Below are positions 1 to 53,405 of a stretch of DNA of 64,000 nt, piece after piece. The DNA lies in assembly GCA_963755025.1 (NCBI GenBank), contig CAVWIH010000014.1, positions 288,001-352,000 on the forward strand, written 5' to 3'. Both the position numbers and the translations under genes were made by a program. The notes beneath the pieces are model-generated. The model had not been told where the DNA came from. It saw nothing but the letters and a program-made list of their open reading frames with translations, and made no database searches. Numbering within the stretch: position 1 is the stretch's first letter; every line of letters begins with the position of its first letter. This DNA comes from an uncultured Actinomycetes bacterium. GTDB lineage: Bacteria; Actinomycetota; Thermoleophilia; UBA2241.

Positions 1-144
1 GCCCGCGTCGTGGCGCAAAGCGGACGGACGGTGTCCGGTTTTGAGGGCTTTTCCCGGGGCCGTGCGCCCGAAAACCGCAGGCGGCCTGCGCCGCGGCCGG
101 CTCCGGCGCCGGCGGGCCGAGCCGCACCGCGGCGGCCCTCGGCC

Positions 145-762
145 CTAGTAGGCGAGCCGCGCCTCGGCGAGCATCTGCCCGATCAGCCGCGTGCCGTTGG
201 CTACCGCAGCGCTCGTGGTCGCGCTGCCGTTGGCCAGCTCGCCCGCCGGTATCGGCTCGCCGATGCGCGCCGTGATGCGCGCGAGCGAGGGCCACTTGTT
301 ATCGGGCGGCAGGGCCTTGCCGGTGCCCGTGAGGTACAGCGGCAGGAGCGCCGCGTTGGTCTTGAGCGCGAGGTACGCGGCGCCGCCCTGGATCTCGTCG
401 CGGTCGATCCCTCCCTGGGGGAAGATGGCCACCGTGCCGCCTTCGCCAAGGATCTCGATCGCCCGTCTGAAGCTCGCCACGTTGGCGTGCTCCTCTTCGA
501 CCGGCAGGGAGCCGATGGCGCGCAGGTAGCGCCCGATGCCGCGCTTCTGGAACAGGTGTGCGGCGGAGAGAAAGGTGAGGCGCCGGCCCCTGAAGACGGC
601 GATCAGCACGAAGCCGTCGAGGTTGCTCTCGTGGTTGGCCACGATCACGAGCGGCCCCTTGGTGGGGATCCGCTCGCGGTCTATCACTTTGAGCCGGAAG
701 GCGCTTCTGAAGACCGGTCCGACGGCCAGCGCGGTGGCCGTATAGGGCACGAGTCGCGGCAT
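145..762 (-). CDS. Lysophospholipid/1-acyl-sn-glycerol-3-phosphate acyltransferase (PlsC family)
   Basis: NHESNLD (HxxxxD) and IFPQG motifs; probable ATG at 762 (ORF track extends to 900). Confidence 0.85.
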   Translation of the reverse strand: MPRLVPYTATALAVGPVFRSAFRLKVIDRERIPTKGPLVIVANHESNLDGFVLIAVFRGRRLTFLSAAHLFQKRGIGRYLRAIGSLPVEEEHANVASFRRAIEILGEGGTVAIFPQGGIDRDEIQGGAAYLALKTNAALLPLYLTGTGKALPPDNKWPSLARITARIGEPIPAGELANGSATTSAAVANGTRLIGQMLAEARLAY

Positions 763-915
763 CTGGCCGCCTGGGCGATCGCGAACGGGGAGAATGCTGG
801 GCCTGACCTTTACTGGTGGGTCGATGACTCCATGATAGTGCCGAAGTGGGGTCACCGCGTGCTTTTCTTGCGCCGTCGCCTCGGAGGCGCCCTTGGGCAT
901 GGGTCCGGCGGACGG

Positions 916-1575
916 TCAGTGGAGCAGCGAGAGCAGGCCTTTCGTGCTGTAGACGGCGCCCACGACGGCAAACAGCACAAGGAGCACGGGGCGATTGTAG
1001 CGCGCCACCCAGGCCTTGGCGCGGTCGACGTCGACGGCCCGGCTCCTGTGCGCGCCGAGCACCGCGGCGACGATGGCGACGGGCAGCGCGCAGGCGAGCA
1101 CGACGAACAGCGCCAGCGCCGCGGCCGCCTGCGCCGCGGTCACGCCGGCAGCCAGGATGTCGAGCATGGCCGGAGTCTGCATCTCGTAGTTGACGAGCAG
1201 CACGCCGACGACGACCGCGCCCAGCGGCCCCATGCCGGCGACCAGGCTCATCCAGCGCGGCTGGGCGGCCCCGGCCCGCCGGGGCCGCCGCACGAGCAGC
1301 ACCGCGAAAGCTGCCAGAAAGGCCAGACCGATGAGCAGCCAGGCCCAGCGCACGAAGGGCGTGCTGGCGCCCGAACTGGTCACAAGCGAGCCGCCGAAGA
1401 CCACCAGCACGAGCGTGCCGAACAGCGCCATGCCGCCGACCAGCGTGACGACGTAGGCCAGGCCGCACACCTGCGGCCGGCGCGTGGTCGACACCACCAG
1501 CGCCGCCAGCATGGGCACCGGGTTGATGGTGATGATGATCGCGACCGGCAGGATCTGCAGGAGGAGCGACGTCAT
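916..1575 (-). CDS. GAP/Sap family (glycolipid-addressing, LysE-like) membrane protein
   Basis: About 6 TM helices, N-terminal 'INPVP' and C-terminal 'W...YNR' pattern; paralog at 52755. Confidence 0.7.
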   Translation of the reverse strand: MTSLLLQILPVAIIITINPVPMLAALVVSTTRRPQVCGLAYVVTLVGGMALFGTLVLVVFGGSLVTSSGASTPFVRWAWLLIGLAFLAAFAVLLVRRPRRAGAAQPRWMSLVAGMGPLGAVVVGVLLVNYEMQTPAMLDILAAGVTAAQAAAALALFVVLACALPVAIVAAVLGAHRSRAVDVDRAKAWVARYNRPVLLVLFAVVGAVYSTKGLLSLLH

Positions 1576-1627
1576 CGGCGGACCGCCCGCGGCCGCGGGC
1601 CCAAGCGCGCGCTCACACCGGCCGGCG

Positions 1628-2995
1628 CTACGCGCCGACGCGCAGCGCCGGCCCCTGGGGCCGCGGCGAGCCGGAGAGGCTGAAGGCCAGGATCTGCATG
1701 TCGTCGCTCCAGCGCCCCGCGTAGGCGAGCGCCGCGTCGCGCAGACGCACGGCCACCTCGTGAGGGCCTATGCCGGGGTGATCGCAGAGCGCCTCGGCGA
1801 GGCGGCACTCGCCGAACAGCGCCGTGCCCACGCGCGCCTCGGTGATGCCGTCGGTGAAGAGCGCCACGCAGTCACCCGGCGCCAGCGCGACGTGCCCTCC
1901 GGGGTAGTCACAGGGAAACGTGCCCAGCGGCACGCCGAAGGTGGTCTCCAGAAAGCCGCACGACTGCGGGCGCACGAGCAGCGGTGCGGGGTGACCGGCG
2001 CTGGCGTAGGCGGCTTCGCCGGTGCTCAGGTCGAGCGTCAGCAGAAAGGCCGTCACGAACTGGTCGTCGGGGCCGTTGCGACGCAGCAGCAGCAGCTCGT
2101 TGGTCTTGCGCAGGATGAAGCCGGGCTCGGCGTCGACGAGCGCGAAGCTGCTCACCGCGGTGCGCACGGTCTCGGTCATGCCGGCCGCGCGCACGCCCTT
2201 GCCCTCGACGTCGCCGAGCAGCACGATCACGCGGCCGTCGGGCACGGTGAAGACGTCGTGAAAGTCGCCGCCCACGAGCTCGGGAGCGTGCGCGGTCTCG
2301 GTGACCAGCGCGAGGTCGAGGCCCGCGATGTCGGGCAGGGGATGGATGAAGTTCTCCTGCAGGGTCACGGCGATATGGCGCTGGGCGTGCAGCAGGTCGC
2401 GTTGCGCGCGTTGCTCTGACTCGTGGCGCTCGGCGTTCCACACCGCGCTCGTCGCCTGCAGGGCGAGCAGGCGGAAGACGCGCAACAGATCGCCGGCGAC
2501 CGGCTCGCCGTGGCGGCGCCCCAGCCCGACCAGCAGCCCCTTGAGCCGCACCCCCGCCACCACCAGGGGCGCCGTCCAGGCCTCGTCGTAGCCGTGCCGG
2601 GCGCAAAGCGCTGCGAACTCGGGCGAGCCCAGCGACGCGACGGCCACGAGCCGCGGCCCAGTGCGCTCGAGGTCGAGCGCGGCGATGTCGATGGGGCGCA
2701 GGCGGACGCCCGCGGTGTCGTCGACGATGCCCTCGGTGGCCGCCGCGCGCAGCTCGCCGCCATCGTCGGCCATGACGAACAGGGCGAAGGCCGGCAACCC
2801 GGTGAGGATGCAGCCGTACTCGACCACCTGCGAGGCCGCGCCGTGCAACGACAGCGTCGACGCGAGCAGCGCGCCGAGGTGGATGAGGCCTTCGAGGGTG
2901 CGTGCGTCGGGCACGCCGCTGTTGCCGGGAAGGTCTGACCGGCGGCGCAGCGGACGGACCGGCTGCGGAGCGTCCGACGCGCGACTGTCGCTCAT
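1628..2995 (-). CDS. GAF + SpoIIE/PP2C serine phosphatase (RsbU-like)
   Basis: GGDFHD, LGDVEGKG, SAGHP, FTDGITE and DDMQIL motifs; N-terminal GAF-like region. Confidence 0.9.
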   Translation of the reverse strand: MSDSRASDAPQPVRPLRRRSDLPGNSGVPDARTLEGLIHLGALLASTLSLHGAASQVVEYGCILTGLPAFALFVMADDGGELRAAATEGIVDDTAGVRLRPIDIAALDLERTGPRLVAVASLGSPEFAALCARHGYDEAWTAPLVVAGVRLKGLLVGLGRRHGEPVAGDLLRVFRLLALQATSAVWNAERHESEQRAQRDLLHAQRHIAVTLQENFIHPLPDIAGLDLALVTETAHAPELVGGDFHDVFTVPDGRVIVLLGDVEGKGVRAAGMTETVRTAVSSFALVDAEPGFILRKTNELLLLRRNGPDDQFVTAFLLTLDLSTGEAAYASAGHPAPLLVRPQSCGFLETTFGVPLGTFPCDYPGGHVALAPGDCVALFTDGITEARVGTALFGECRLAEALCDHPGIGPHEVAVRLRDAALAYAGRWSDDMQILAFSLSGSPRPQGPALRVGA

Positions 2996-3011
2996 GCGAC
3001 CCGCGGTCCCT

Positions 3012-4421
3012 CTAGGACGAGCCGCGGCCGGTGAGTTCGGCGAAGGCCTCGCCGAGCACGAACCCGTCGGAGGTGATCGAGAACTGGCGGATCGACGGGT
3101 CGTGATCGCTCGCCCTGGTCTTGATCACCGAGATGGCGCGCCTGATCTGCGAGTCGGCGCGCACGTAGCTGAGCAGCAGCACGTTGTCGGACATGTGGCT
3201 GATGCCCTGACGGGAGAGCACGGTGGTGGCGAACAGGTCGCCGATCTCGTGGGTCATGAAGATCGAGACGCCGTTGACGGCCATGGCCTGGGTGAGCGAG
3301 TACATGAAGTCGCGAAAGCGGCCGCCGCTCGGCGAGGCGGCCTGCAGGTCGTTGACGCTGTCGATGAGCACGCGCTGGGAGCCCTCGTGCAGAGCCCGGC
3401 GCGACACCCGGCTCACGAACTCGTCGATGTAGATGTCGACCGGCGAGACGTACATGAGCGTGAGCATACCCGCGGCGATGGCCTCCTCGATATCCCAGCC
3501 GAAGCCCTTGGCGATGCGCTGCAGCTGGGTGGGGTTCTCCTGCATGGTGGCGATCAGGCCTCTCTCGCCCATCTCGATGCCCTTGAAGATGAAGTGCAGG
3601 CCGAGCAGCGTCTTGCCGCTGCCGGGAGGGCCGAAAGCCAGCGTCGAGCTGCCCTTCCAGAGGCCCGCTGAGAGCATGGCGTCGAGGGCCGGCACGCCGA
3701 TGGCGCTGCGCGCCCCGGCGAGCTCGTAGTCGACGGGCACGTCGGGCGTAGTGAGGCGCGGGAAGAGCTCGATGCCGTCGCTGCCTATGCGAAAGGCGTG
3801 CTCGCCGCCGAAGAAGGCGCTGCCGCGCAGCTTGGTCACGCGCAGATAGCGCACATCGCCCACCCCGACCTTGTCGAGGACGAGCTCGATGATGCTGTCG
3901 GTCACGGCGAACTCGGGCAGCGCGGGGATCTCGTCGGCGCCGTACTCGCCCACCCAGAACGAGGTGATGGCCAGCGACGACAGCACTGAGGTCAGCACCG
4001 AGAGGCTGGCGCGGAACTCCTGCTCGGAGTCGGTGAAGGAGTGCAGCGCCTTGAAGCTGTCGATCACCAGGAACGCCGGCTGGTAGCGTTTGATGAGCCC
4101 GACCATCTCGTCGATCGCGGCGACGAGACCGCGCGTGCGCAGGGGCTCGCTCAGCTCCTGATAGATGATCGCCTCGCCGATCTGGGCCGGATCGAAGTAC
4201 GCGAACTCCTGCACGTAGCGCAACATGCGGTCGAGCGGCTCGGAGACCGTGCTGATGTAAAGCACGGGGCGGGCGGCCGAGGCGTTGTGAAAGGCGATGC
4301 TCTGGGCGAGCACGGTCTTGCCGGTGCCCGGCATCCCCATGAGCAGGTTGGTGGAGTTCGCCGGGAACCCGCCGCCCAGGATCTGATCGAGGGCTTCGTT
4401 GCCGCTTTCGATGCGTCTCAT
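3012..4421 (-). CDS. kaiC: Double-domain KaiC-like ATPase
   Basis: Two RecA-like domains: GMPGTGKT..LVIDS..KLRGS and GPPGSGKT..VLIDS..KTRAS; 'ISHMSD' at the KaiC phosphosite position. KaiC-like, not necessarily a clock protein. Confidence 0.85.
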   Translation of the reverse strand: MRRIESGNEALDQILGGGFPANSTNLLMGMPGTGKTVLAQSIAFHNASAARPVLYISTVSEPLDRMLRYVQEFAYFDPAQIGEAIIYQELSEPLRTRGLVAAIDEMVGLIKRYQPAFLVIDSFKALHSFTDSEQEFRASLSVLTSVLSSLAITSFWVGEYGADEIPALPEFAVTDSIIELVLDKVGVGDVRYLRVTKLRGSAFFGGEHAFRIGSDGIELFPRLTTPDVPVDYELAGARSAIGVPALDAMLSAGLWKGSSTLAFGPPGSGKTLLGLHFIFKGIEMGERGLIATMQENPTQLQRIAKGFGWDIEEAIAAGMLTLMYVSPVDIYIDEFVSRVSRRALHEGSQRVLIDSVNDLQAASPSGGRFRDFMYSLTQAMAVNGVSIFMTHEIGDLFATTVLSRQGISHMSDNVLLLSYVRADSQIRRAISVIKTRASDHDPSIRQFSITSDGFVLGEAFAELTGRGSS

Positions 4422-4437
4422 GGACCGAGGGCTCCCT

Positions 4438-5097
4438 TCAGGTGGTCAGCGCGGCATGGTCGACGGCGAGCATGTTCTTGACGAGGTCGATCAGCGCCGG
4501 CTGTTCGAGCGGCTTGAGCAGGAAGGCGTCGGCCCCCGCCGCCAGGGCACGCTCGCGCACGTCGAGCACGCTGAAGACGAGCACGGGGATCGGCGCCGTC
4601 TCGGGGTCGGCCTTGAGGGCCTGGCAGACCTTGAGGCCGTTCACGCCGGGCAGGATGACGTCGACGATGACGAGATCGGGATGCAGGCGCTTGGCCTCGT
4701 CTAAGGCGCGCGTGCCATCGAGCACGACGAGCACGTCGTAGCCCTCGTTGCGCAGGAAGTACTGTTCGAGCTCGGCGGTGATGGGGTCGCGTTCGGCGAC
4801 CAGGATCATGATGGCGCCCCTGCGCGCTGCCTCGCGTGCGACCCCCTGGACGTTGTCGAGCTCGTGGGCGAGCAGGCGGTGCGCGGCGCCCGCCTGCAGT
4901 CCGTCGTCGATCTTGGCCTTGAGGAATCGCAAACGCTCGACGTCGAGCTGGCTATAAAGCCGATGCCCGCCGGCGGTGCGAAACGGCTTCACGACGGCGT
5001 AGCGGCGCTCCCAGTAGCGCAGGGTGGTGATGGGGATGTCGGTCATCTCGCTGACGGCGTTGATGGCGTAGATGCCGATCTGGGAGCCTGAGTCCAA
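4438..5097 (-). CDS. MerR-type HTH + receiver (REC) domain fusion regulator
   Basis: LRYWERRY..RTAGGHRLYS (MerR HTH) followed by REC (VDVILPG, LLKPL); TTG at 5097 follows GGAGG (ORF track start 5118). Confidence 0.85.
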   Translation of the reverse strand: MDSGSQIGIYAINAVSEMTDIPITTLRYWERRYAVVKPFRTAGGHRLYSQLDVERLRFLKAKIDDGLQAGAAHRLLAHELDNVQGVAREAARRGAIMILVAERDPITAELEQYFLRNEGYDVLVVLDGTRALDEAKRLHPDLVIVDVILPGVNGLKVCQALKADPETAPIPVLVFSVLDVRERALAAGADAFLLKPLEQPALIDLVKNMLAVDHAALTT

Positions 5098-5293
5098 CAG
5101 TACCTCCAGTGACGGCAAGCCGCGGCGGGGGGCCGGGCTTCACCTCGACGAAACTGGACAAATACTAAGACGAACCTCGACGACGCGCAAGGTTCCTCAA
5201 GGTTTTTGGCGCTGGCCCGAGCGGTCGTCTCGTCACGTGCGGGCAAGGGGGAGGCGAGGTCCAGGCCGCAGCCGGCGATGGGGCGGCGAGCGT

Positions 5294-5584
5294 TCAGGCC
5301 GCGGCCGGCGCCGACTCCACGTCGAGCAGCCCGATGCCGGTCAGCAGCAGGTACTCGCCGCCCGCCGTGGCGAACTCGGTCGTGACGTCGCCGACAAGGC
5401 GCAGGCCGGCCATGGTCTCGACGACCAGGTGGCCTTCGTTGCCGATCGCCCTGTAGGCGCGCGACGGCACCTGATAAAGAGCGACGTGCCAGCCCCGCCG
5501 GGCGTGGATCAGCACGCCGTGGCCGAACGACACCAGTCGTCCGTTCAGCGTCACTCTGGCCAGCTGGTCGGCGGTCTCGACCAT
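5294..5584 (-). CDS. Small hypothetical beta-rich protein (paralog of 39040-39330)
   Basis: GAGGGG RBS; shares H.VLI...RGWHV.L..VPS and Y.LLTG.G.L with the 39040 ORF. Confidence 0.75.
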   Translation of the reverse strand: MVETADQLARVTLNGRLVSFGHGVLIHARRGWHVALYQVPSRAYRAIGNEGHLVVETMAGLRLVGDVTTEFATAGGEYLLLTGIGLLDVESAPAAA

Positions 5585-5693
5585 TCGTCACCCCTCTGGA
5601 GAATCGACAGCAGGGGATAGCGTGCCCACCGGCTCTTCTACGAATACACTCGTCGACCGTTGGAACGCGCAAGAGTGCGCACGGCGCCCGCGC

Positions 5694-6605
5694 TCAGCGC
5701 GGCGGGCCGAGGGCGAGCTCGGCGGCCCCCTCGAGGGCGAGGGCGGCGGCTTTCTCGAGGTCGAGCGCGAGCGCCGGCGGGTCGCCGCGGCGCCCGGGGT
5801 CGGTCGCCGCGTCGAGCTCGAGGACGCGGCGCAGCGCGGCGCAGGCCAGTTCGAGATGCTCGTAGGCAGGCTCGCGGGTGGTCAGGCAGCGCTGCAGGGC
5901 CTTGCCGCCCGACAGGCACACGCGGCTGGCCAGCGAGCGCGGCCAGCGCGAGATCAGCCGAAAGAGCTCGAGGGCGAGGGCGACGGCCAGCACGGCGTAC
6001 GCGGCGCCGAGCAGGGCGCCCTGATCGCCGAGCAGCAGGCTGCCCAGCATGAGCACGAAGATGATGGCCACGAGGTTCGTGCCGCAGCGGTCGTGGATGC
6101 GACTGAAGCTCATGACCGCCTCGGCATCGCGCAGGTCGGCCCCGGCTTCGTAGGCGTTCACCGCCTTGTGTTCGGCGCCGTGGTAGCGCCACACCGCCTT
6201 GCCCATGCCCTGGCGCAGGGCGATCAGCGCCAGCGCAAAGCTCAAAGCCTGCACGACCACGTAGCCGGCGAGCTCACCGTGCACGACGTCGGGGACGATC
6301 GAGCTTACGGCGAAGCTCGCCAGCATCGCCAGGGCAAGCCAGACGAGGAGCGCGGCAGCGGGGCGCACCCCATTGCGGCGGTGCAGCCCGACGGCCATGG
6401 CGATCATCTCGGCAAAGACGACGAGCGAGCGCACGACCGGGAGCCGCAGCAGCCGGTGGCGGTCGAGCACGGTGAGCACGGGCCCGTCGACGACCGAACC
6501 GTCGTCGCGCGCCCAGGCCCACCAGCGCTGGCTGCGCATGAGCACGCCGTTGCCGAACGCCATGCCGCCGACCCGGGCCGGGACGCGGCTCGCGCGCATC
6601 ACCAC
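5694..6605 (-). CDS. DUF1385 (YqhQ-like) membrane protein
   Basis: GGMAFGNGVLM, YHGAEHK, HDRCGT and TTREP motifs. Confidence 0.85.
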   Translation of the reverse strand: MVMRASRVPARVGGMAFGNGVLMRSQRWWAWARDDGSVVDGPVLTVLDRHRLLRLPVVRSLVVFAEMIAMAVGLHRRNGVRPAAALLVWLALAMLASFAVSSIVPDVVHGELAGYVVVQALSFALALIALRQGMGKAVWRYHGAEHKAVNAYEAGADLRDAEAVMSFSRIHDRCGTNLVAIIFVLMLGSLLLGDQGALLGAAYAVLAVALALELFRLISRWPRSLASRVCLSGGKALQRCLTTREPAYEHLELACAALRRVLELDAATDPGRRGDPPALALDLEKAAALALEGAAELALGPPR

Positions 6606-6871
6606 GCCCCTGCCGGCGTGAGCACCCGATTTGCAGCAAGAAACCTCATCGCTCTTTCACTATACACAGGCCGTGCCCGAGCGCCACCGCGGCTCGGGCG
6701 CGCGCGACGGCGGTGGTTTGCCGACGCGGCGAGCCGGTAAGAAGCCCCGAAGAGTCCCGTACGGGCGGCCGGCGCGGGCGGCCGAAGGGCGCCCGCCAGC
6801 GGCGCCCGGACGGGAAGATGCAGGCGAACATCGAGCGGCGCGCATCTTTTTGAGAATCGCACCACGCCGAG

Positions 6872-6915
6872 ACGCACACGAGGGACGGGCCGTGAGGCCC
6901 GTCCCTCGTGTGCGT
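6872..6915. terminator. Perfect 20-bp stem hairpin (probable terminator after the 36-aa ORF)
   Basis: acgcacacgagggacgggcc-gtga-ggcccgtccctcgtgtgcgt. Confidence 0.75.
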
Positions 6916-6933
6916 GCAACGAGCGGCCGCGCC

Positions 6934-7044
6934 TCAGTGGCGATGCACGCGACGCTCGACCATGTAGTAACCCGCGCCGACCATGGCCGCCCTGACCATG
7001 GTCGGTGACTTCTTCCACACGCGATACCAGGTTCGCACCGTCAT
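6934..7044 (-). CDS. 36-aa small basic protein (not in ORF track)
   Basis: GGGAGGA RBS then ATG; MTVRTWYRVWKKSPTMVRAAMVGAGYYMVERRVHRH*; strong hairpin follows. Confidence 0.55.
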   Translation of the reverse strand: MTVRTWYRVWKKSPTMVRAAMVGAGYYMVERRVHRH

Positions 7045-7188
7045 CTCAGATCCTCCCACCACGCTGGTTTTGCAGGACGTTTGTCGCCCGAAGCCCGACA
7101 CCTCTCGTTAAGGAACTACCCAGATCGCCCGCGGACGCGTCGTCCGGCGCCCGGTGACGCCGCGCCGACGCGGCGCGCGCGCAAGGGC

Positions 7189-8134
7189 ATGATCGTCGCC
7201 CTGCTCAGCGGGGCGCTCTGGGGCGCCTCCGCCGTCGTGCTGGGTGAGGCCCTGACGCGCCGCCCGCTCCTCGCCGCCGGCGCCCTGTTCGCCGCGCCCC
7301 TCGCGGCGGCGGCGCTGCACGACACGTTCGCCTTTCTCTGGGTGAGCACCGTGAACGCGGCCGCCGGACGCCTGCGCGAAGCGACGGCGGCGCTGCGCAC
7401 GCGCGACGGGCTCGTCGTCTGCCTGGCGGCCCTGATCGGCGGGCCGCTCGCCATGTCGACCTACCTGCTGGCCATCGCCTTTCGCCGGCGCGCCGTCGGC
7501 CGTGGCCATCTCGGCCATCTACCCCGCGCTGGGCGCGTTGCTCGGCTACCTCGTGCTCGGCGACCGCCTGGGCAGCCGCGGCTGGGTGGGCCTCGTGCTG
7601 GCGGTGGCGGGCGCTACCCTCGCCAGCTACGCGCCGCCGGCGGGCGTCTCGTCGCACTACCTGCTCGGTGTGCTGTTCGCGCTCGCCTCGGCGGCGGGCT
7701 GGGCCGTCGAGGGCGTGCTCGTCGCGCGCAGCCTGCTGCGCATGCCGGCTCTGGCCGCCCTCAACATCCGCGAGGGCGTCTCGGCACTCGTCTTTCTGGC
7801 GCTCGTCCTGCCGCTGTCGGGCGCCGCCATCGTGGCGGCCCGCACGGTCGCCTCGCCGACGATAGCCATCCTCGTGGTCGCCAGCCTCTGCGGCGCGGGA
7901 GCCTACCTGTTGTACTACCGCTCCCTCGACCTGCTGGGGCCCGCGCGCGCCATGCCGGCCAACAGCACCTACGTGCTGTGGACCATCGCCCTCAGCCTGG
8001 TGGTCACCGGCGACCCGCCCGGCTGGAGGCTCGTGGCCGGCGGCATCGTGGTCGTGGCCGGCATCACCCTGGTGGCGGCCGACGGCCGCGAGCCCGCGGC
8101 TGCGGCGCTCTCCGCCGGCGGCGCGGCCCGCTAG
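7189..8134 (+). CDS. DMT/EamA transporter, LicB (choline permease)-like; +1 frameshift near 7480
   Basis: LLSGALWG, HD.F, GGPLAM, SAIYPA, W.VEGV and NSTYVLWT match LicB-type DMTs; removing one T from the run at 7480-7482 joins the two ORFs. Confidence 0.75.
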
Positions 8135-8528
8135 CGAGCGCCGCGGCCCCCAGGTAGCAGGCCACCGCCGCGGCCGCCCAGGCGACCAGCGCGACCAGGA
8201 GCGTGACGGCCGTGGTGAGCTCCACGATGAGGGTCGCGCAAAGCACCGCGAACACGATCAGGCCCAGCGCCCCGTAGGCGGCGCCGCGCTCGTCTTCGAG
8301 CGCCTGTCGCCGCCCCTCCTTGCGCTCGATCATCGTGAGGGCCGCCGGCAGGATCGCCGGAAAGGCGAGGAACATGCCCCCGGCTCTGGCACCCGCGGCC
8401 AGACCGACGAGACCGGCGACCAGCGAGATGGCGGCCCCAAACGCGAACCGCACGACGAGCTCACCCGCGCGCAGCTTCTTGAGCTTCGCGGGGTCGTCGC
8501 CGAAGGAGCGCCGCAGCAGGCCGCTCAT
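8064..8528 (-). CDS. DUF3147-like small membrane protein
   Basis: RFAFGAAIS..GGMFLAFPAILPA; about 4 TM helices. Confidence 0.7.
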   Translation of the reverse strand: MSGLLRRSFGDDPAKLKKLRAGELVVRFAFGAAISLVAGLVGLAAGARAGGMFLAFPAILPAALTMIERKEGRRQALEDERGAAYGALGLIVFAVLCATLIVELTTAVTLLVALVAWAAAAVACYLGAAALASGPRRRRRAPQPRARGRRPPPG

Positions 8529-10117: not shown

Positions 10118-12366
<2,249 letters not shown>

Positions 12367-21601: not shown

Positions 21602-22378
21602 GTGAACCCGCCCGTGCCCGCCGACCACGGCGAGCTCGCCGCGCTGCTCTCGCGCGCCGGCTTCATCGCCGCCGACGCTGAGGCCGCTGCGTTGCTGGCG
21701 CGCGCCGCCGGCGACGCCGCGCTCCTCGAGGCGCTCGTCGCACGCCGCCTCACCGGCGAACCCCTCGCCTGGGTCACCGGCCGTGTCAGGTTCTGCGACC
21801 TCGAAGTGCTCGTCGCGCCCGGCGTCTACGTGCCGCGCCCGCAGAGCGAGGCCCTCGCCCGGCGCGCCGCCGCCCGCCTGCCTGCCGCAGGCACGGCGAT
21901 CGACCTCTGCACGGGGACCGGCGCCATCGCCATGACCCTGCAGAGCACCCACCCCGCGGCCCGCGTCGTGGCTTCAGATGTCGACGAGCGCGCCGTCGCC
22001 TGCGCTGCCGCAAACGGCGTCGAGGTCTATCGCGGCGACCTCTTCGCCCCGTTGCCGACCGGTCTCGCGGGTAAGGTCGACGTAGTGGTCGGCGTCGTGC
22101 CTTACGTGCCGACGCCCGAGCTCTCCCTGCTGCAGCGCGACACCTTCGCCTTTGAGACCACTCTGTCGTACGACGGCGGTCCGGACGGCGCCGCCATACT
22201 GCGCCGCGTGGTGGCCGACGGCGCCCGCTTTCTGCGGCCCGGCGGCGCCCTGCTGCTCGAGCTCGGCGGGCGACAGGCCGACCTGCTCTCCGGCGACCTT
22301 GCGCGCCTGGGCTACGTCGCCGTCACGCTGCTGGTCGACGACGACGGCGACGCGCGCGGCATCGAGGCCCTGCGCTAG
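21602..22378 (+). CDS. HemK/PrmC-like SAM-dependent methyltransferase
   Basis: RRLTGEPLAW, VYVPRP, DLCTGTGA, VPYVP (NPPY variant), DGGPDG. Confidence 0.85.
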   Translation: MNPPVPADHGELAALLSRAGFIAADAEAAALLARAAGDAALLEALVARRLTGEPLAWVTGRVRFCDLEVLVAPGVYVPRPQSEALARRAAARLPAAGTAIDLCTGTGAIAMTLQSTHPAARVVASDVDERAVACAAANGVEVYRGDLFAPLPTGLAGKVDVVVGVVPYVPTPELSLLQRDTFAFETTLSYDGGPDGAAILRRVVADGARFLRPGGALLLELGGRQADLLSGDLARLGYVAVTLLVDDDGDARGIEALR

Positions 22379-22439
22379 AGTCCGGCCCGGGCGCAACGGC
22401 CGGTCGAAGCGCCCCGACAGGGGTGCGTATACTGCCTCC

Positions 22440-23852
22440 ATGGCCGCTCTCGACCTGCCAGTCGACCTTGCCCAGGAGACCCGGAGCCACCTGGCCAACG
22501 TCGTCGACAACCTGCAGCTGATCGCCGACCTGGGTTACGGCGACGTAGCCCTGGTCGTGCCCGACCAGACGGGCGCGCTCGTCGTGATCGCCGACTGCCG
22601 GCCGAGCACCGCCGCGACCCCGTTCGCCACGTCGCGCGTGGGCCGCGCGCTCACGGCGAGCGAGTCGCCCGAGGCCCTGGGAGCCCTGGAGCGGGGCGCG
22701 CCCGTCGAGGGCGAGCACGAGCGTCGCGCCCACGACATGCGCTACGCGACGCTGGCCTACCCGATCGGCGAGCCCGTCCCGTTCGCCGCCGTCGTGCGCA
22801 GCCTCGCGCGGCACGCCGAGTCGGCTCCCGGAGCCATGGAGAAGGCCTTCATGCGGGCCGCCGAGGCGCTCTTGCGAGCGCTCGCCGCCGGCCCCATCGT
22901 CGACCTGCGCACAGGCGGCGGCTTCGCCACGACACGCCACGCGGGCGACGGCGTCATGCAGGTCGCCCCCACCGGACGCATCGCCTACGCCTCGCCCAAC
23001 GCGGTCAGCATCATGCGGCTGGCCGGCGTCGAGGGCCGCGTCACCGGCATGAGGGCCTCGGCGCTGCCCGGCGGCGTGCTCGGCATCTCACCGACCTTCG
23101 GCGCGCGCGGCGCCATCGCGGTGCAGGCCGAGGTCGCCCAGCGCGTGCTCGACTACCGCTCCATCGCCCTCGACTACGGCACGCTCGTGCTGGTCGAAGA
23201 CCTGACCGAGGCGCGCCGCCGCGAGCGCGAGATCATGGTCAAGCAGGCCACCATCCGCGAGGTGCACCACCGCGTCAAGAACAACCTGCAGACGATCGCC
23301 TCGCTGCTGCGCGTGCACGCGCGACGCACCACGAGCGACGAAGCGCGCAAGGCCCTGGCCGACGCCACCGACCGCGTCACCTCGATGGCCGTCGTGCACG
23401 ACCTGCTGGCGGGCTCCGACGAGGAGCGCGTCGACTTCGCCCAGGCGGCGCGCACCGTCGTCGACCTCGTGCGCCGCGGTCTCGTGGGGGAGGAGTCGCG
23501 CGTCACCGTCTCGGTGAGCGGCGCGACCGGCCAGGTCGACGCGCGCACCGCCACCTCGCTCGCCCTGACGATCGCCGAGCTCGTGCACAACGCCCTCGAG
23601 CACGCCTACGCCCCGGGCGCCGCGGGCAGCGTCGCGCTCGTCCTGCAGCGCCTGCCGCACGAGCTCGAGCTCACCGTGAGCGACGACGGCAGCGGCCTGC
23701 CGGCCGGCTTCGACCCCGCCCGCTCGAGCAACCTCGGCCTCGCCATCGTGCGCGCCCTGGTCGAAGACGACCTGCAGGGCACGCTGCACATGCGCGGCGG
23801 CCCGGGCGGCACGGTCGTCACCGTACGCGTGCCTCTCGCCGGCCCCGAGTAG
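22440..23852 (+). CDS. PdtaS/EutW-like cytoplasmic sensor histidine kinase (HisKA_2)
   Basis: LQLIADLGYGD N-terminal domain, PAS, REVHHRVKNNLQ, ELVHNALEH, DDGSG; TATACT lies 6 nt before the ATG (leaderless-type start). Confidence 0.9.
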   Translation: MAALDLPVDLAQETRSHLANVVDNLQLIADLGYGDVALVVPDQTGALVVIADCRPSTAATPFATSRVGRALTASESPEALGALERGAPVEGEHERRAHDMRYATLAYPIGEPVPFAAVVRSLARHAESAPGAMEKAFMRAAEALLRALAAGPIVDLRTGGGFATTRHAGDGVMQVAPTGRIAYASPNAVSIMRLAGVEGRVTGMRASALPGGVLGISPTFGARGAIAVQAEVAQRVLDYRSIALDYGTLVLVEDLTEARRREREIMVKQATIREVHHRVKNNLQTIASLLRVHARRTTSDEARKALADATDRVTSMAVVHDLLAGSDEERVDFAQAARTVVDLVRRGLVGEESRVTVSVSGATGQVDARTATSLALTIAELVHNALEHAYAPGAAGSVALVLQRLPHELELTVSDDGSGLPAGFDPARSSNLGLAIVRALVEDDLQGTLHMRGGPGGTVVTVRVPLAGPE

Positions 23853-29013: not shown

Positions 29014-29061
29014 CGGCGTACCCGGATATCGGCGTACCTGGTCACCGGCGTACCTGGTTAC
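29014..29061. repeat. 3 x 16-bp tandem repeat spanning the ANTAR gene stop codon
   Basis: cggcgtacccggatat / cggcgtacctggtcac / cggcgtacctggttac. Confidence 0.75.
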
Positions 29062-29624
29062 AGGGCGTCGCCGGCCGTGATGATCGCCTCGGCCACCTCG
29101 CGCAGGGTCTTGCGCCGGTCCATGGCGACCTTCTGCAGCCGGCGAAAGGCGTCGGCCTCGGTGAGCCCGCGCGCCATGAGCAGGCCCTTGGCCTGGTCGA
29201 CGACCTTGCGGGTCTCGAGACGCTCGGTCAGGTCGCCCACCTCGCGCGCCAGCAGGGCGGCCTCGGCGAAGCGCGCGACCGCCACCTCCATGGCCGGCAC
29301 GATGTCGTTGCGCGAGAAGGGCTTGACGACGTAGCCCATGGCGCCGGCGCGTGTGGCTTGCTCGACCTGCGCGGGCTGCGAGAACGCCGTGAGGATCACC
29401 ACGGGCGCGATCGCTTCGGCGCTGATGGCGGCCGTCGCCTCGATGCCGTTCACGCCCGGCATGTTGATGTCCATGAAGACCACGTCGGGCCGGCACGAGC
29501 GCGCCAAGGCGATCGCCTCGGCGCCGTCGCGCGCCTCGGCCACCACCTCGTGGCCGCCGTCTATGAGCATCTCGCGCAGGTCCATGCGGATCAGCGCCTC
29601 GTCTTCGGCGATCAGCACTCGCAA
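29058..29624 (-). CDS. REC-ANTAR response regulator (PdtaR/EutV-like antiterminator)
   Basis: VLIAEDEALIRMDL, MDINMP, YVVKP, ETRKVVDQAKGLLM...AMDRRK; TTG at 29624 follows AGAGGA. Confidence 0.93.
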   Translation of the reverse strand: MRVLIAEDEALIRMDLREMLIDGGHEVVAEARDGAEAIALARSCRPDVVFMDINMPGVNGIEATAAISAEAIAPVVILTAFSQPAQVEQATRAGAMGYVVKPFSRNDIVPAMEVAVARFAEAALLAREVGDLTERLETRKVVDQAKGLLMARGLTEADAFRRLQKVAMDRRKTLREVAEAIITAGDAL

Positions 29625-29742
29625 GGCCGGGGTCCTCTTCGTCGTCTCCGTGTCGTCGCGCCCCGGTCGTCGCTCGCCGGCGACCGGGGCCCGGCACGCT
29701 TGTAGCTTACCGACGCGCGTGGCGTCGCGCCTGCGTTTTCGC

Positions 29743-30078
29743 CTACATCTCGAAACCGAGGGAGCTGAGGCTGCAGAACACGTGGGCCGTCTTGGCATGC
29801 CCGCGGCGCTGCGGGGCTATGCGGAAGGTCGACCAGTGCGGCAGGGCGACGATGTCGGCTCCGCCGCCGTCGCGCAGGTCGAGCGCGCCCGACTCGAGCA
29901 CGCCGTTGTCGAACACACCGGCGAATTCCTGATGATGGATCTCCACCATCTCGAGCTCGCCGAGGATGTCGGTGAACCAGAGTTGGATGCGCTTCACGTC
30001 GTGTTCGGCGACCTGAAGGCGGATGCTGGCCAGGAGCTCATTCTTCCTGTGTCTTCCTGGTGGCCATGGTCCGCGCAC
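29743..30078 (-). CDS. Stand-alone glutamine synthetase N-terminal (beta-grasp) domain protein, or glnA remnant
   Basis: HDVKRIQLWFTDILGEL..VEI, P.WSTF.I.P and A.VFC match the GS-I N-domain; ends at TAG 29743 with no catalytic domain; start is GTG 30078 or a frameshifted ATG 30067. Confidence 0.7.
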   Translation of the reverse strand: MRGPWPPGRHRKNELLASIRLQVAEHDVKRIQLWFTDILGELEMVEIHHQEFAGVFDNGVLESGALDLRDGGGADIVALPHWSTFRIAPQRRGHAKTAHVFCSLSSLGFEM

Positions 30079-30264: not shown

Positions 30265-30362
30265 CCTGGGCCGGCACGCGCATGGGCCGGCACGCGCCCG
30301 CCTAGGCCGGCACGCGCCCGCATGGACCGGTACGCGCCTGGGCCGGCACGCGCCTACGCCGG
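30265..30362. repeat. Imperfect tandem repeat (ggccggcacgcgc core, about 5 copies) after the kinase stop codon
   Basis: Visible 16-20 bp units. Confidence 0.7.
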
Positions 30363-31505
30363 CCGCACCGGGTCGGCGCCACCGGACTGCCGGGACTGCT
30401 GCGGCGCGCGGCCGGGCGCGAGCGGGATACTGAACGTGATGGTCGTGCCCGCGCCGTCGTTGCTTGCGGCGGCGATCCGCCCGCCGTGGCTTTCGACCAG
30501 GCTCCTGGCGATCGCCAGCCCCAAGCCGCTGCCCTTGGAATCGGCCGACTTTGAGAAGCGGTCGAACAGCCCGGAGAGCTCCTCGGCGGCGATGCCGCGG
30601 CCGTTGTCGCTCACCGTGAACACCGCGTCGCCGCCCGAGAGCGCCACGGCCACGACCACGGCGCCGCCGGCCGGCGTGTAGCGCACGGCGTTGGCCACCA
30701 GGTTGTCGAGCACCTGGCGCAGCCGCACCGGGTCGACGTCGAGCTCGGGCACACCCTCGACGCCGGCCGTCAGCGTCACCCCACGGGCGGCTGCCGTCGC
30801 CTGAAAGGCGCGCAGGGTCTCGTCGACGAGGCGCCGCGGATCGGTGGCCTCGCGGTGCAGCCGCAAGGCGCCCGCCTGGGCCAGGGAAAGGGTCTGCAGG
30901 TCCTCGAGCAGGCGAGCCATGAGCTACGTCTCGGCCAGCACGGGGGTGAGGTGGTCGTCGTCCCGTGGGTAGAGGCCGTCGAGCATGCCCTCGACGTCGC
31001 CGCGGATGACCGACAGCGGTGTGCGCAGCTCGTGGGCGATCTCGGCCAGCAACGCGCGCCGCTGCTCCTCGTTCTCCTGCAGCCGCTGGGCCATCTCGTT
31101 GAATGCCCCGGCGAGCTGCCGGACCTCGCTCGAGCCGCGCGCCTCGACCCGCGCGCCGTAGTCGCCCCCGGCCACCCTGCTGGCGGCGTCCATGACGTCG
31201 CCGATGGGCGCCGCCGTGCGGCGCAACACGCGGCCGATCACCAGGGCGCCCACCACGACGAGGGCCACTACGGGGAACAGCAGGAAGAACGGGTGCGGGC
31301 CGCCGCGCCAGCCGCCGCCGCGCGGCCGCAAAGTCATCGCGTTCCAGATGACGCCCAGAGCGATCAGCAGCGCAAAGAAGGCGAGCAGCAGCAAGACGAC
31401 GCGCCGCACGAAGCGGCGGCGCAGGCGGTGCCAGTCGCCGCCGCTCGGCGGCCAAGGCTCGCCTTCGGGCCACCAGGGCGGAGAGCGCCGGCCGGCCGGA
31501 CTCAT
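30354..31505 (-). CDS. BaeS-like HAMP sensor histidine kinase with an in-frame TAG at 30924-30926
   Basis: 2 TM helices, HAMP, AHELRTPL, NLVANA, DNGRGI, GSGLGL; the frame continues across the TAG (LAET*LMARLLEDL). Confidence 0.85.
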
Positions 31506-32185
31506 CGCTCTTCGGCGAACCGGTAGCCGACGCCGTAGACCGTCTCGATGTACGAGGGCGCGCCCTCGCGAGCCTCGAGCTTGCGGCGGATGTTCTTCAC
31601 GTGGGCGTCGATCGCCCGCTCGTAGGAGTCGAACGCGACGCCGCGCACCGCTTCGAGAAGCTGGCCGCGGGTCAGCACGCGCCCGGGCCGTCGCGCCAGG
31701 GCGACGAGCAGCTGGAACTCGGTCGGCGTCAGGTCGACCCGCTGCCCGGCGGCGCTCACGCGCATGGCGGGCACGTCGATGACCAAATCGGCGGCACGCA
31801 CGACGTCGGGCGCCTGCTGGGTGCCGTCGGTGCGGCGCAGCACGGCGCGCACCCGGGCGACGAGCTCCTTGGGGCTGAACGGCTTCACCATGTAGTCGTC
31901 GGCGCCCAGCTCGAGGCCGACGATACGGTCGGCTTCGTCGCCGCGCGCCGTGAGGACGATGATCGGCATGGCCGAGAACGCCCGCACCGTGCGCGTCACG
32001 TCGAGGCCGTCGAGGCCGGGCAGCCCGAGGTCGAGCACCATGAGGTCGGGCTTGGCGGCGCGCACCTGGTGCAGGGCGGCTTCGCCGTCGCCGGCGACGA
32101 GCGCGGCGAAGCCCGCGTGCTCGAGGTAGTCGCGCACGAGGCGGGCGATCTGCGGTTCGTCCTCGACGATCAGGATCGTTCTCAA
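31502..32185 (-). CDS. OmpR-family response regulator (BaeR-like)
   Basis: ILIVEDE, LDLGLPG, GADDYMVKPF, LTPTEF, ETVYGVGY. Confidence 0.93.
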   Translation of the reverse strand: MRTILIVEDEPQIARLVRDYLEHAGFAALVAGDGEAALHQVRAAKPDLMVLDLGLPGLDGLDVTRTVRAFSAMPIIVLTARGDEADRIVGLELGADDYMVKPFSPKELVARVRAVLRRTDGTQQAPDVVRAADLVIDVPAMRVSAAGQRVDLTPTEFQLLVALARRPGRVLTRGQLLEAVRGVAFDSYERAIDAHVKNIRRKLEAREGAPSYIETVYGVGYRFAEER

Positions 32186-32251
32186 GGGGCCACCCTACCC
32201 GAGGTCCGTCGTGTCGGCCGTCACGGCGGCGTTCACGACGGCTAGCATTCC

Positions 32252-32285
32252 CGGGCGGGGGCGGGCTTGCGCCCGCCCCCGCCCG
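32252..32285 (-). terminator. 15-bp stem hairpin (GCAA loop on the minus strand) between the membrane gene and the regulator
   Basis: cgggcgggggcgggc-ttgc-gcccgcccccgcccg. Confidence 0.6.
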
Positions 32286-32290
32286 CTCGG

Positions 32291-32821
32291 TCACGCCGCC
32301 GGGCCGTCGGCGGGACCGCCCTCCTGCGTCTCGGCCGGCGGCGGGTCGGCGGGCGCGCCGCCCGGGGGCGCCTCGTGCGCCCGGCGGTGCCACTCGTCGA
32401 AGGCCGGCGGCGGATCGCCCGGCGACCATCCGCCCGACCCTCCCGCGGCCGCGTCAGAGCCGGGACCCGGACTCGAGCCGTAGCCGGGACCGGGGCCAGG
32501 GCCGTACCCGGTACCAGGGCCGTACCCGTAGCCAGGACCCGAGCCGTAGCCGTGCATCCAGTGCCGATGCCACGGCCGCCGCCACGCGATCAGCGCGATC
32601 ACCGCCAGCACGACCACCGGGAAGAGCAGGAAGCCCGGGAAGAACCCGAACCCGCGGCCGTACCCGGGGTACCAGAGCGCGCCCGGTCCGACCCGGGTGA
32701 TGACGTGTGCGCCGCTTCCGATGCCGTGGTCGTAGCCCGCGTGGTAGGCGCCGGCGATGCCGAACACAAGCACCAGCGCCGCGAGCACGATCGCGATCAC
32801 GACGGCGATCTTTCGTCCCAC
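32291..32821 (-). CDS. Two-TM membrane protein with GYGPG repeats and FDEWHR motif
   Basis: AAGGGAG RBS then GTG; directly upstream of the two-component pair; paralog at 12644. Confidence 0.75.
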   Translation of the reverse strand: MGRKIAVVIAIVLAALVLVFGIAGAYHAGYDHGIGSGAHVITRVGPGALWYPGYGRGFGFFPGFLLFPVVVLAVIALIAWRRPWHRHWMHGYGSGPGYGYGPGTGYGPGPGPGYGSSPGPGSDAAAGGSGGWSPGDPPPAFDEWHRRAHEAPPGGAPADPPPAETQEGGPADGPAA

Positions 32822-43462: not shown

Positions 43463-43695
43463 GGGGCGCCTCCGGCGGTTGCGTTTGACCGGCGGTCCCG
43501 CAGGAGTCGGGTCTTCGCGACCGGGCCGCCGGATGCCCAGTGTGCCGCCGAATCGCGCGGCCCACAACCCTGTGGAAACCTGTGGACTGGTGTACGCGCG
43601 CCGCAAACCGAGCAAAGTCGAGACACAACTTATTGCGTTGCAACCACTAAAGTGCTTAGACTTCCACAAACTTCCTCGCGGAGAAAGGTTGCGAC

Positions 43696-52754: not shown

Positions 52755-53405
52755 GTGAACAGCCTGCTCGCCGGCCTTCTCGTGCCGGCTCTCGCCATCG
52801 CCGTGAACCCGGTGCCGATCGTCGCCGTCGTGACGCTGCTCTCCGGCGACCACGGGCGCCGCAACGCCTTCACCTTTCTCGCCGCGATGGTGGTCGTCAT
52901 GCTCACGCTCGGCGTCCTGACCATCTTCGTGCTGGGCAGCGAGTCGGCGCGCAGCTCCGCGACTACCGCGCAGGCCGCCGCCCAGACGTTGTTCGGCCTT
53001 GTCTTTCTGGCGCTCTTCGTGGCGCAGTGGCGGGCCCGGCCCAGGCGCACCGAAGAACCTCCGGGCTGGATGCGCCTGATCGACAAGGCGGGCCTGGGCG
53101 CGGCCGTCGTGCTGGCCTTCGCCCTCACCAACTACGCGCTGCTCTCCGCGGGCGCCGGCGAGATCCGTACGTCCGGGGCGAGCGCTCCCGAGCAAGCCAC
53201 GGCGCTCGCCTTCTTCATCGCCGTCGCCGTGTCGACCGTCGCCACGCCGCTGGTCCTCTACCTCGTGCGCCCCGTTTGGGCGCGCGAGCAGCTCGGCCGG
53301 CTGCAGGATTGGCTCACCCGGTACGACCGCGTCATCCTGATGATCGTCTTCGGGGTGATGGGCGTGCTCTTCACCGCGCAGGGCGCGGCCGGCCTGCTGC
53401 ACTGA
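52755..53405 (+). CDS. GAP/Sap family membrane protein (paralog of 916-1575)
   Basis: AVNPVP, PGWM, W..RYDR; both paralogs end in ...LLH. Confidence 0.75.
   Translation: MNSLLAGLLVPALAIAVNPVPIVAVVTLLSGDHGRRNAFTFLAAMVVVMLTLGVLTIFVLGSESARSSATTAQAAAQTLFGLVFLALFVAQWRARPRRTEEPPGWMRLIDKAGLGAAVVLAFALTNYALLSAGAGEIRTSGASAPEQATALAFFIAVAVSTVATPLVLYLVRPVWAREQLGRLQDWLTRYDRVILMIVFGVMGVLFTAQGAAGLLH

Follow-up and report, generated by a model that had tools for sequence, protein, structure and literature searches.

We describe here an operon in a 64-kb stretch of an uncultured actinomycete genome (contig CAVWIH010000014.1, positions 288,001 to 352,000, 71% G+C; hereafter the window) that encodes, in succession, a regulator joining a MerR-type helix-turn-helix (HTH) domain to a receiver domain (MerR-REC), a double-domain KaiC-like ATPase and a GAF-linked PP2C phosphatase. 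With moderate confidence, we read the operon as a CarH-type autorepressor under the control of a KaiC ring, which would switch on a cargo gene without a histidine kinase. The direction of control is probably the reverse of that proposed in a first-pass annotation of the window, with MerR-REC and KaiC as the controller and the phosphatase as the regulated cargo.

The three genes lie on the minus strand at 5097-4438 (MerR_1 plus Response_reg, 219 amino acids, TTG start with GGAGG 6 nt upstream), 4421-3012 (the KaiC-like ATPase, 469 amino acids) and 2995-1628 (GAF, a long helix and an RsbU/SpoIIE-type PP2C, 455 amino acids). All three are intact open reading frames separated by gaps of exactly 16 nt, which bears out the common orientation and spacing first reported for them. 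The KaiC-like protein likewise carries the Walker motifs attributed to it (Walker A as GMPGTGKT and GPPGSGKT, Walker B as VIDS twice), and its ISHMSD motif aligns with ISTITD of KaiC, with S408 and H409 at the S431 and T432 positions. The GAF domain assigned to the phosphatase is missed by Pfam and was recovered by fold comparison of an AlphaFold model, and the reported lack of KaiA/KaiB, STAS and anti-sigma families agrees with a Pfam scan of 79 window open reading frames. Three features were absent from that annotation: the changed catalytic positions of KaiC (Gln294 at E318 and Ser60 at E77), an arginine at the receiver's metal position and an 11-bp repeat array at 5140-5183.

Conservation of the MerR-REC/KaiC core

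A GTDB scan for relatives of the window KaiC returned at least 35 loci, to which the locus counts given here refer. MerR-REC lies directly upstream of kaiC in eight of the 35 (L001, L002, L003, L008, L009, L011, L017 and L025); their KaiC identities (43-90%) are the highest of the 35, and all eight are from Actinomycetota. The closest among the matches listed is L003, a Thermoleophilia genome bin with 90% KaiC identity and ~90% DNA identity over 5 kb, and apparent frameshifts are present in L011 and L017. A named KaiC/MerR-REC pair with adjacent locus tags is also found (CVT60_05125 and CVT60_05130). As an indirect proxy for linkage, the longest contigs of KaiC clusters and of the best 120 MerR-REC clusters were compared by size: they are identical for 39 of 86 close KaiC clusters, against a chance expectation of 0.9 on average and 6 at most in 20,000 jitters. 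The 34 more distant KaiC clusters gave no size match with these 120, as is expected because the MerR-REC list ends at ~59% identity. The MerR-REC profile search was itself dominated by multi-receiver kinases, and 15 of its 150 rows were chosen as full-length members by length and span.

A histidine kinase gene adjoins the core in none of the eight loci, nor is one next to the window operon, and neither KaiA nor KaiB occurs among the scanned neighbours of the eight. In a quick tree with Shimodaira–Hasegawa-like approximate likelihood ratio test (SH-aLRT) supports only, computed with the frameshifted L017 and the single-domain and partial loci left out, the loci carrying a PP2C gene and those carrying a STAS gene form two sister subclades (SH-aLRT 99 each, 93 jointly). 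The sister group to these in the KaiC tree, L005-L007, has a stand-alone related receiver upstream of kaiC and a histidine kinase downstream, both in 3/3. Gene order and tree together point to receiver and KaiC as the old core, to which the HTH was added in Actinomycetota and beside which the third gene is exchangeable.

Upstream of three outgroup kaiC genes, an open reading frame of 120-140 amino acids stands in the receiver's place (L004 6555-6974, L010 6603-6974 and L037 3538-3954); it has no Pfam family in L004 and L010 and is annotated 'hypothetical' in L037, a histidine kinase follows kaiC in all three, and the product is possibly another KaiC-docking partner. A REC-KaiC fusion in an actinomycete (L016 6644-8479) and, in Chloroflexota, a MerR-PAS-histidine kinase whose gene immediately precedes a distant kaiC (L018 5332-6915) present further ties of MerR HTH and REC domains to KaiC. 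In a plasmid collection, KaiC matches do not exceed 34% identity, the best being a KaiC-HWE kinase-receiver locus, and no full MerR-REC homologue is among the best 15 matches. Among the papers listed by full-text literature searches, in which few subscription journals are covered, none describes a KaiC that is paired with MerR-REC or accompanied by RsbU/STAS genes.

Repressor, operator and ring

In Pfam the regulator matches MerR_1 with an E value of 2e-15 and Response_reg with one of 3e-20. Among solved structures its HTH is closest to 3whp (E 4.5e-15) and CarH (5c8d, 7.6e-15), which places CarH/LitR ahead of GlnR (6e-8) by seven orders of magnitude, and residues W29, E30, R40 and G43-G44-H45-R46 are kept in 118-121 of 121 family members. 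The relationship is confined to the DNA-binding unit: the CarH model scores 67.5 against a cut-off of 400 and aligns over residues 6-79 only, the B12-binding domain is absent, no B12 family is found in MerR-REC at Pfam E<=0.01, and the C-terminal domain is Response_reg.

At the key receiver positions the window protein has E102, R103, D146, S176 and K195. R103 aligns with the second Asp of the PleD VVDD motif, the metal-binding Asp of the beta1-alpha1 loop; this position is Arg, Lys or His in 121/121 close members and acidic in 0/23 distant ones (acidic in 0/144 overall). Almost all close members (119 of 121) keep the phospho-acceptor D146, but 16 of the 23 distant ones have Glu there, all three kinase-linked sister receivers (L005-L007) among them. 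Measured against a canonical receiver, the window protein thus lacks the acidic metal triad and has the phospho-Asp, the Ser/Thr switch and the Lys; with D146 in place, it does not belong to the aspartate-less receivers, a class defined by replacement of the phospho-Asp that would take in the 16 distant relatives. Retention of the first acidic residue and the Lys with loss of the second acidic residue has been described as the pattern of phosphorylation-independent receivers (PMC4395418). On its residues, the REC domain is a predicted phosphorylation-independent pseudo-receiver, which would account for the absence of an adjacent kinase. Helix alpha1 of the receiver is unusually conserved (TAELExYFL), with a conserved surface at T107-L115, and would form a docking face.

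Upstream of the operon, at 5140-5183 on the minus strand, we found a predicted operator of four tandem ~11-bp direct repeats with the family consensus TGTCGAAGTTT. Read on the opposite strand, the consensus is AAACTTCGACA and contains TnnACA, the core of the CarH/CarA repeat; the sites bound by CarH itself consist of three or four tandem repeats of 11 bp, nnnnTnnACAn, and overlap the -35 or -10 element (PMC9304148). When arrays of four units were sought de novo in nine upstream regions, those of the eight loci and the window, period 11 gave 226 bits, compared with 128-154 bits at periods 9, 10, 12 and 13 and 114-130 bits for 12 shuffled controls, which were run more lightly (6 x 25 restarts x iterations) than the real data (10 x 35), a difference that touches neither the comparison of periods nor the held-out tests. 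When each locus and its close kin were excluded from the matrix, the period-11 array outscored every other site of its locus in 9/9 cases, as against 1, 5, 1 and 0 of 9 at periods 9, 10, 12 and 13; for the window array the held-out score is 10.1 and that of the next site in 64 kb is 8.9, a narrow margin. The units are degenerate, with 12 exact TnnAC[AG] matches across the nine arrays and none in L001 or L002, a count that is not independent of array selection. In L009, L011 and L017 the STAS gene follows the array, whose place in L008 and L025 is the interval separating a STAS gene from a divergently oriented MerR-REC gene.

A putative sigma-70-type promoter, TTGCGC-17-TAGTAT, lies at 5162-5190 on the minus strand by a loose pattern match, its spacer and -10 box falling inside the repeats, and the same loose pattern gives similar overlaps in five of the nine regions (window, L002, L003, L009 and L017). 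The promoter call is weak, since a stricter scan of window positions 1-7000 found zero sites. We consider it very likely that MerR-REC represses the operon through the array. A palindrome upstream of the operon, AACCT-N-AGGTT, was present in the window only (1/13 regions) and was dropped in favour of the 11-bp array. After the operon array (19.1), the highest score of any 11-bp array in the window (9.8) falls at 43593-43636 on the minus strand, near where a fumarase-like lyase gene starts and also upstream of a DeoR gene that points the other way; this site may be a chance match, another regulator's site or a second target.

The ATPase matches the Pfam ATPase (KaiC) family at E 8e-67. Like clock KaiC it has two RecA-like domains, Walker motifs, both K-x-R finger motifs and a Ser at the S431 position; each of K35, D121, K197/R199, K270, D354 and K434/R436 is conserved in 118-120 of the 120 KaiC-like proteins. 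Unlike clock KaiC, it scores 156.6 with circ_KaiC (NCBIfam TIGR02655), where the cut-off is 546, and 223 with PRK09302, where it is 408. It is shorter (469 compared with 519 amino acids), without the long C-terminal tail, has His at the T432 position and no kaiA or kaiB beside it, and shows a gap of ~5 residues at the DPEGQEVV loop, which we take to be the KaiB-binding loop (B-loop) of clock KaiC. On score, sites, loop and neighbours alike, it is not a clock KaiC.

Alignment to solved KaiC places S60/E61 at the catalytic pair E77/E78 and Q294/E295 at E318/E319. The E77 position is Ser in 116/120 KaiC-like proteins, and the E318 position is Gln in 93, Glu in 26 and Arg in one. In S. elongatus KaiC, the catalytic base E318 activates first T432 and later S431, and the E318Q change kills both the kinase and the CII ATPase (PMC9171630; bioRxiv 2024.03.21.584037); with Gln at this position, the window protein is probably not an autokinase. 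Slow ATP turnover by the ring is plausible because residual CI activity remains in the E77Q/E78Q mutant (PMC9171630). A complex prediction of KaiC with REC reached a median score of 0.27 against a mark of 0.32, in a run whose controls did not fold.

An exchangeable third gene and the stress-sigma switch

The window phosphatase matches Pfam SpoIIE (E 2.5e-41), has intact PP2C metal-binding motifs (GGDF 242, GDVEGKG 261, TDG 381 and DD 431) and was modelled by AlphaFold with a mean predicted local distance difference test score of 86.6. In the model, residues 27-194 match the GAF domain of PtsP (3trc; Z 16.1, root-mean-square deviation 3.0, 162 aligned), and the best fold match of the catalytic domain is the RsbU domain of Rv1364c (Z 27.2, root-mean-square deviation 2.4, 220 aligned), with SiaA, SpoIIE and RsbX also ahead of the PstP/Stp enzymes. 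RsbU-class phosphatases dephosphorylate STAS anti-anti-sigma factors (PMC8256260).

The first-pass annotation had suggested a neighbourhood search for the MerR-REC/KaiC/PP2C triplet, and we found that the MerR-REC-KaiC pair is conserved but that the triplet occurs in only three of the eight loci, in the same order in two. The PP2C gene is downstream of the core in L001 and L003 and upstream in L002. The other five loci (L008, L009, L011, L017 and L025) have a stand-alone STAS gene directly before MerR-REC, and no locus has both PP2C and STAS within the DNA examined; all eight loci and the window thus have one of the two immediately adjacent to the core. Beyond these loci, at least 3 of 32 pair-bearing contigs (>=5 kb) match one of the best 120 PP2C matches by size. 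One MerR-REC homologue (P0396) is fused to an RsbW-like HATPase_c_2 domain, and another (P0467) carries a decayed copy of it. The PP2C family is itself large and varied in its sensors: of 8000 scored, 345 match at E<=1e-20, and about 7 of the best 120 listed do so over the full length.

Because PP2C flanks the core in three loci, STAS replaces it in five and an RsbW-like fusion exists, the phosphatase is most plausibly an exchangeable cargo that acts on proteins of the RsbV type. It is quite likely that this cargo raises the level of active RsbV and so frees a stress sigma factor encoded elsewhere. In no locus is a full RsbU/RsbV/RsbW set or a sigma gene found within 7 kb. A hidden Markov model of STAS built from six related loci has zero matches in the six frames of the 64-kb window, and an anti-sigma model searched in the same way matches only the ATPase domains of two histidine kinases (22152-23852 and 30354-32429). 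These kinases are 17-28 kb from the operon, and the ANTAR-type and OmpR-type regulators in the window fit them. The earlier proposal that the PP2C resets KaiC is at odds with the Gln at the E318 position, with the RsbU-type fold and with the replacement of PP2C by STAS in five of eight loci.

Mechanism, alternatives and wider setting

In the mechanism that we propose, MerR-REC, like CarH, would bind cooperatively to the four tandem repeats that overlie its own promoter and so repress the operon. Its REC domain would dock the co-encoded KaiC-like ring independently of phosphorylation, and the ring would bind ATP, with probably slow turnover and probably no autokinase activity. The nucleotide state of KaiC would then decide whether repressors gather into an oligomer competent for DNA binding. 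We favour KaiC as a co-repressor scaffold, in the manner of glutamine synthetase for GlnR, over KaiC as an anti-repressor, and the signal sensed by the ring may, at a guess, be the ATP/ADP ratio. Once repression is relieved, the cargo would be made: a GAF-gated RsbU-type phosphatase in the window, an RsbV-like STAS protein in other Actinomycetota. Either would increase active anti-anti-sigma factor and release a SigB/SigF-type sigma factor encoded elsewhere. That the REC docks on the ring and that nucleotide state sets repressor assembly, with a sign that is uncertain, seems to us rather likely. The full proposal is more tentative, and we hold it to be possible but somewhat doubtful: a kinase-dead KaiC ring, acting through its nucleotide state, would assemble or release a CarH-type repressor array, replacing both the B12 photoswitch and a SasA/RpaA-type phosphorelay, and would thereby gate a stress-sigma switch.

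Several observations weigh against this interpretation. The comparison itself yields core linkage, cargo exchange, the receiver residues, Q294 and the array, and the mechanistic steps that join them are read from sequence. Matrices with permuted columns still put the upstream region at the top in 4-45 of 100 trials at each locus, which points to base composition as one contributor to the ranking of the array, and held-out array scores (7.9-24.6) overlap at their low end with those upstream of 14 loci without MerR-REC (-3.3 to 8.5). The L002 array lies between the PP2C gene and MerR-REC with PP2C upstream, and this PP2C gene would hence not be array-controlled. L013 (Kutzneria) falls in the STAS subclade with ANTAR genes upstream, and it has neither an adjacent MerR-REC nor an array. 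In close receivers D146 (119/121), S176 (121/121) and K195 (119/121) are all kept, and the window MerR-REC may be phosphorylated. Some KaiC-like members may autophosphorylate, because Glu occupies the E318 position in 26/120 close KaiCs and S408 is kept in 118/120. The phospho-site Ser is kept in only three of the five adjacent STAS proteins (Ala in L011, Cys in L025), and no RsbV, RsbW or stress sigma factor was seen within the 64-kb window. At the L013 locus, from the cultured Kutzneria buriramensis (5133-8374), KaiC has Glu at the E318 position and kaiC is preceded by genes for two ANTAR proteins.

The alternative that survives best retains the same core with the other sign or an indirect route: KaiC would be an anti-repressor, or the REC would be phosphorylated by a kinase encoded elsewhere with KaiC as scaffold, on the pattern of the Pseudomonas KaiC-HK-RR modules. 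Sequence alone does not give the sign, the close family retains D146, S176 and K195, kaiC is immediately followed by a histidine kinase gene in 3/3 loci of the sister clade, and a Pseudomonas KaiC binds its kinase (bioRxiv 2022.01.26.477890). However, the sister receivers that do have a kinase combine a Glu acceptor with an Arg metal site (3/3) and are unlikely kinase substrates, and no kinase is adjacent to any of the eight MerR-REC loci. We regard this alternative as unlikely, though worth serious consideration.

The self-contained timer of the first-pass annotation, in which KaiC would autophosphorylate on S408, the GAF-PP2C would reset it and MerR-REC would read the phospho-state, is in our view improbable. 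It draws on the S408 and E318 counts given above, on Ser or Thr at the T426 position in 114/120 KaiC-like proteins, on Pseudomonas KaiC-like SY/TY or SS sites that are phosphorylated in vivo (bioRxiv 2022.01.26.477890) and on a PP2C that is catalytically intact and operonic in the window, L001 and L003. Against it, the window protein has Q294, PP2C is missing beside five of eight cores with STAS in its place, the contig-size matches to PP2C number at least 3 of 32, the PP2C fold is of RsbU type, and the KaiC sites, at the subunit interface near ATP (bioRxiv 2024.03.21.584037), would be poorly placed for an outside phosphatase. What stands of the proposed switch is the linkage of its core (8/35 loci), the lack of an adjacent kinase and a matching operator; the fixed three-gene timer is not supported.

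It is very unlikely that the PP2C and STAS neighbours are chance members of stress-gene islands and that the core is not tied to partner switching. The size and sensor variety of the PP2C family (345 matches) and the different position of PP2C in L002 compared with L001 and L003 would fit such islands, and neighbours within KaiC subclades may be inherited rather than independent; against this stand the PP2C or STAS gene immediately adjacent in all eight loci and the window, the array upstream of STAS in all five STAS loci, and the RsbW-like domain fused to MerR-REC in P0396 and decayed in P0467. Least likely of all is a relay in which KaiC replaces the histidine kinase and His409 passes phosphate to Asp146: His409 is kept in 115/120 KaiCs, Asp146 in 119/121 close receivers and no kinase gene is adjacent in 8/8 loci, but H409 aligns with the His of LEHCID in E. 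coli RadA and is therefore an ordinary RecA-family residue, the His persists even in the loci with a Glu acceptor in the REC (L008, L009 and L025), and the REC metal-binding position is never acidic (0/144), so we rejected His409 as a novel phospho-His site.

Our CarH-type repressor and KaiC ring resemble several known systems in part. With the Pseudomonas KaiC/histidine kinase/receiver module they share a stress-linked, non-clock double-domain KaiC without KaiA/B and a co-encoded receiver, which in P. putida is a single-domain neighbour that binds KaiC in two-hybrid tests (bioRxiv 2022.01.26.477890), and the sister clade L005-L007 has the corresponding REC-KaiC-kinase order. In the Pseudomonas module, however, the kinase is nearly always adjacent, the receiver is without a DNA-binding domain and KaiC is phosphorylated (bioRxiv 2022.01.26.477890), whereas here there is no kinase, an atypical receiver is fused to an HTH with its own predicted operator, and Gln occupies the catalytic-base position. 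CarH/CarA/LitR provide the winged-HTH type, the three or four tandem 11-bp TnnACA-type repeats at a promoter and the oligomerisation-dependent repression that would also operate in the window system; the differences are a pseudo-receiver instead of the B12 domain, no carotenoid genes and a KaiC ring as partner.

The GlnR operator is palindromic. GlnR is nonetheless a functional analogue of the proposed mechanism, being a MerR-like repressor with a ring enzyme in the same operon; glutamine synthetase docks GlnR, and TnrA, to confer DNA-binding competence, though its ring is unrelated, docking is through a C-terminal tail and the signal is nitrogen (PMC9249791). The RsbU-RsbV-RsbW/SigB switch supplies the RsbU-type PP2C, RsbV-like STAS and RsbW-like domains found beside or fused to the core across genomes, but never as a full set or with a sigma gene within 7 kb. 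Archaeal KaiC-REC fusions and KaiC signalling hubs also tie KaiC-like ATPases, some of them inactivated, to REC domains (PMC5847659), and any HTH-linked neighbourhoods of archaeal KaiC hubs may be closer still. A KaiC-coupled repressor that controls an RsbU/RsbV/RsbW switch was not found in our literature searches.

Elsewhere in the window, a 96-amino-acid open reading frame without a Pfam match lies upstream of the operon at 5294-5584 (minus); its conserved counterpart in L003 is separated from the operon by an inserted PAP2 gene. Genes for GAP/SfLAP-family membrane proteins occur at 916-1575 (minus) and 52755-53405 (plus); the former lies 52 nt downstream of the PP2C gene, may be co-transcribed with it and is common only to L003. 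Since the 5294-5584 frame and the downstream GAP/SfLAP and acyltransferase genes are matched only in L003 among the eight close loci, we do not count them as parts of the operon. A PdtaS-like GAF/HisKA_2 kinase (22152-23852, plus) and a PdtaR-like REC-ANTAR protein (29058-29798, minus) flank glutamate synthase and aminotransferase genes. Three genes look broken, either through assembly errors or as pseudogenes: an MFS transporter (10480-12366, plus) has an in-frame TGA caused by a short, local slip of the reading frame and is intact in L003, the sensor kinase at 30354-32429 (minus) has an in-frame TAG, and an EamA gene (7081-8134, plus) is split across two frames.

All parts of the operon belong to known families, and modules that join KaiC to a receiver have precedents. 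How a non-clock KaiC reaches transcription and what it senses were left as open questions in the Pseudomonas study (bioRxiv 2022.01.26.477890), and the window operon would offer a minimal testable answer, made up of a single ring, a single DNA-binding partner and a single predicted operator of 44 bp. With its CarH-type operator and without a kinase step, it lends itself unusually well to testing. Most carriers are genome bins of uncultured organisms, and genetics is accordingly limited. The CarH DNA-binding unit and its operator would have been reused here with a different switch, and KaiC-like ATPases would be tied to RsbU/RsbV/RsbW stress signalling, a link not found in the literature searches. 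If the proposal is true, a lineage of KaiC-like rings in Actinomycetota would control transcription in one step.

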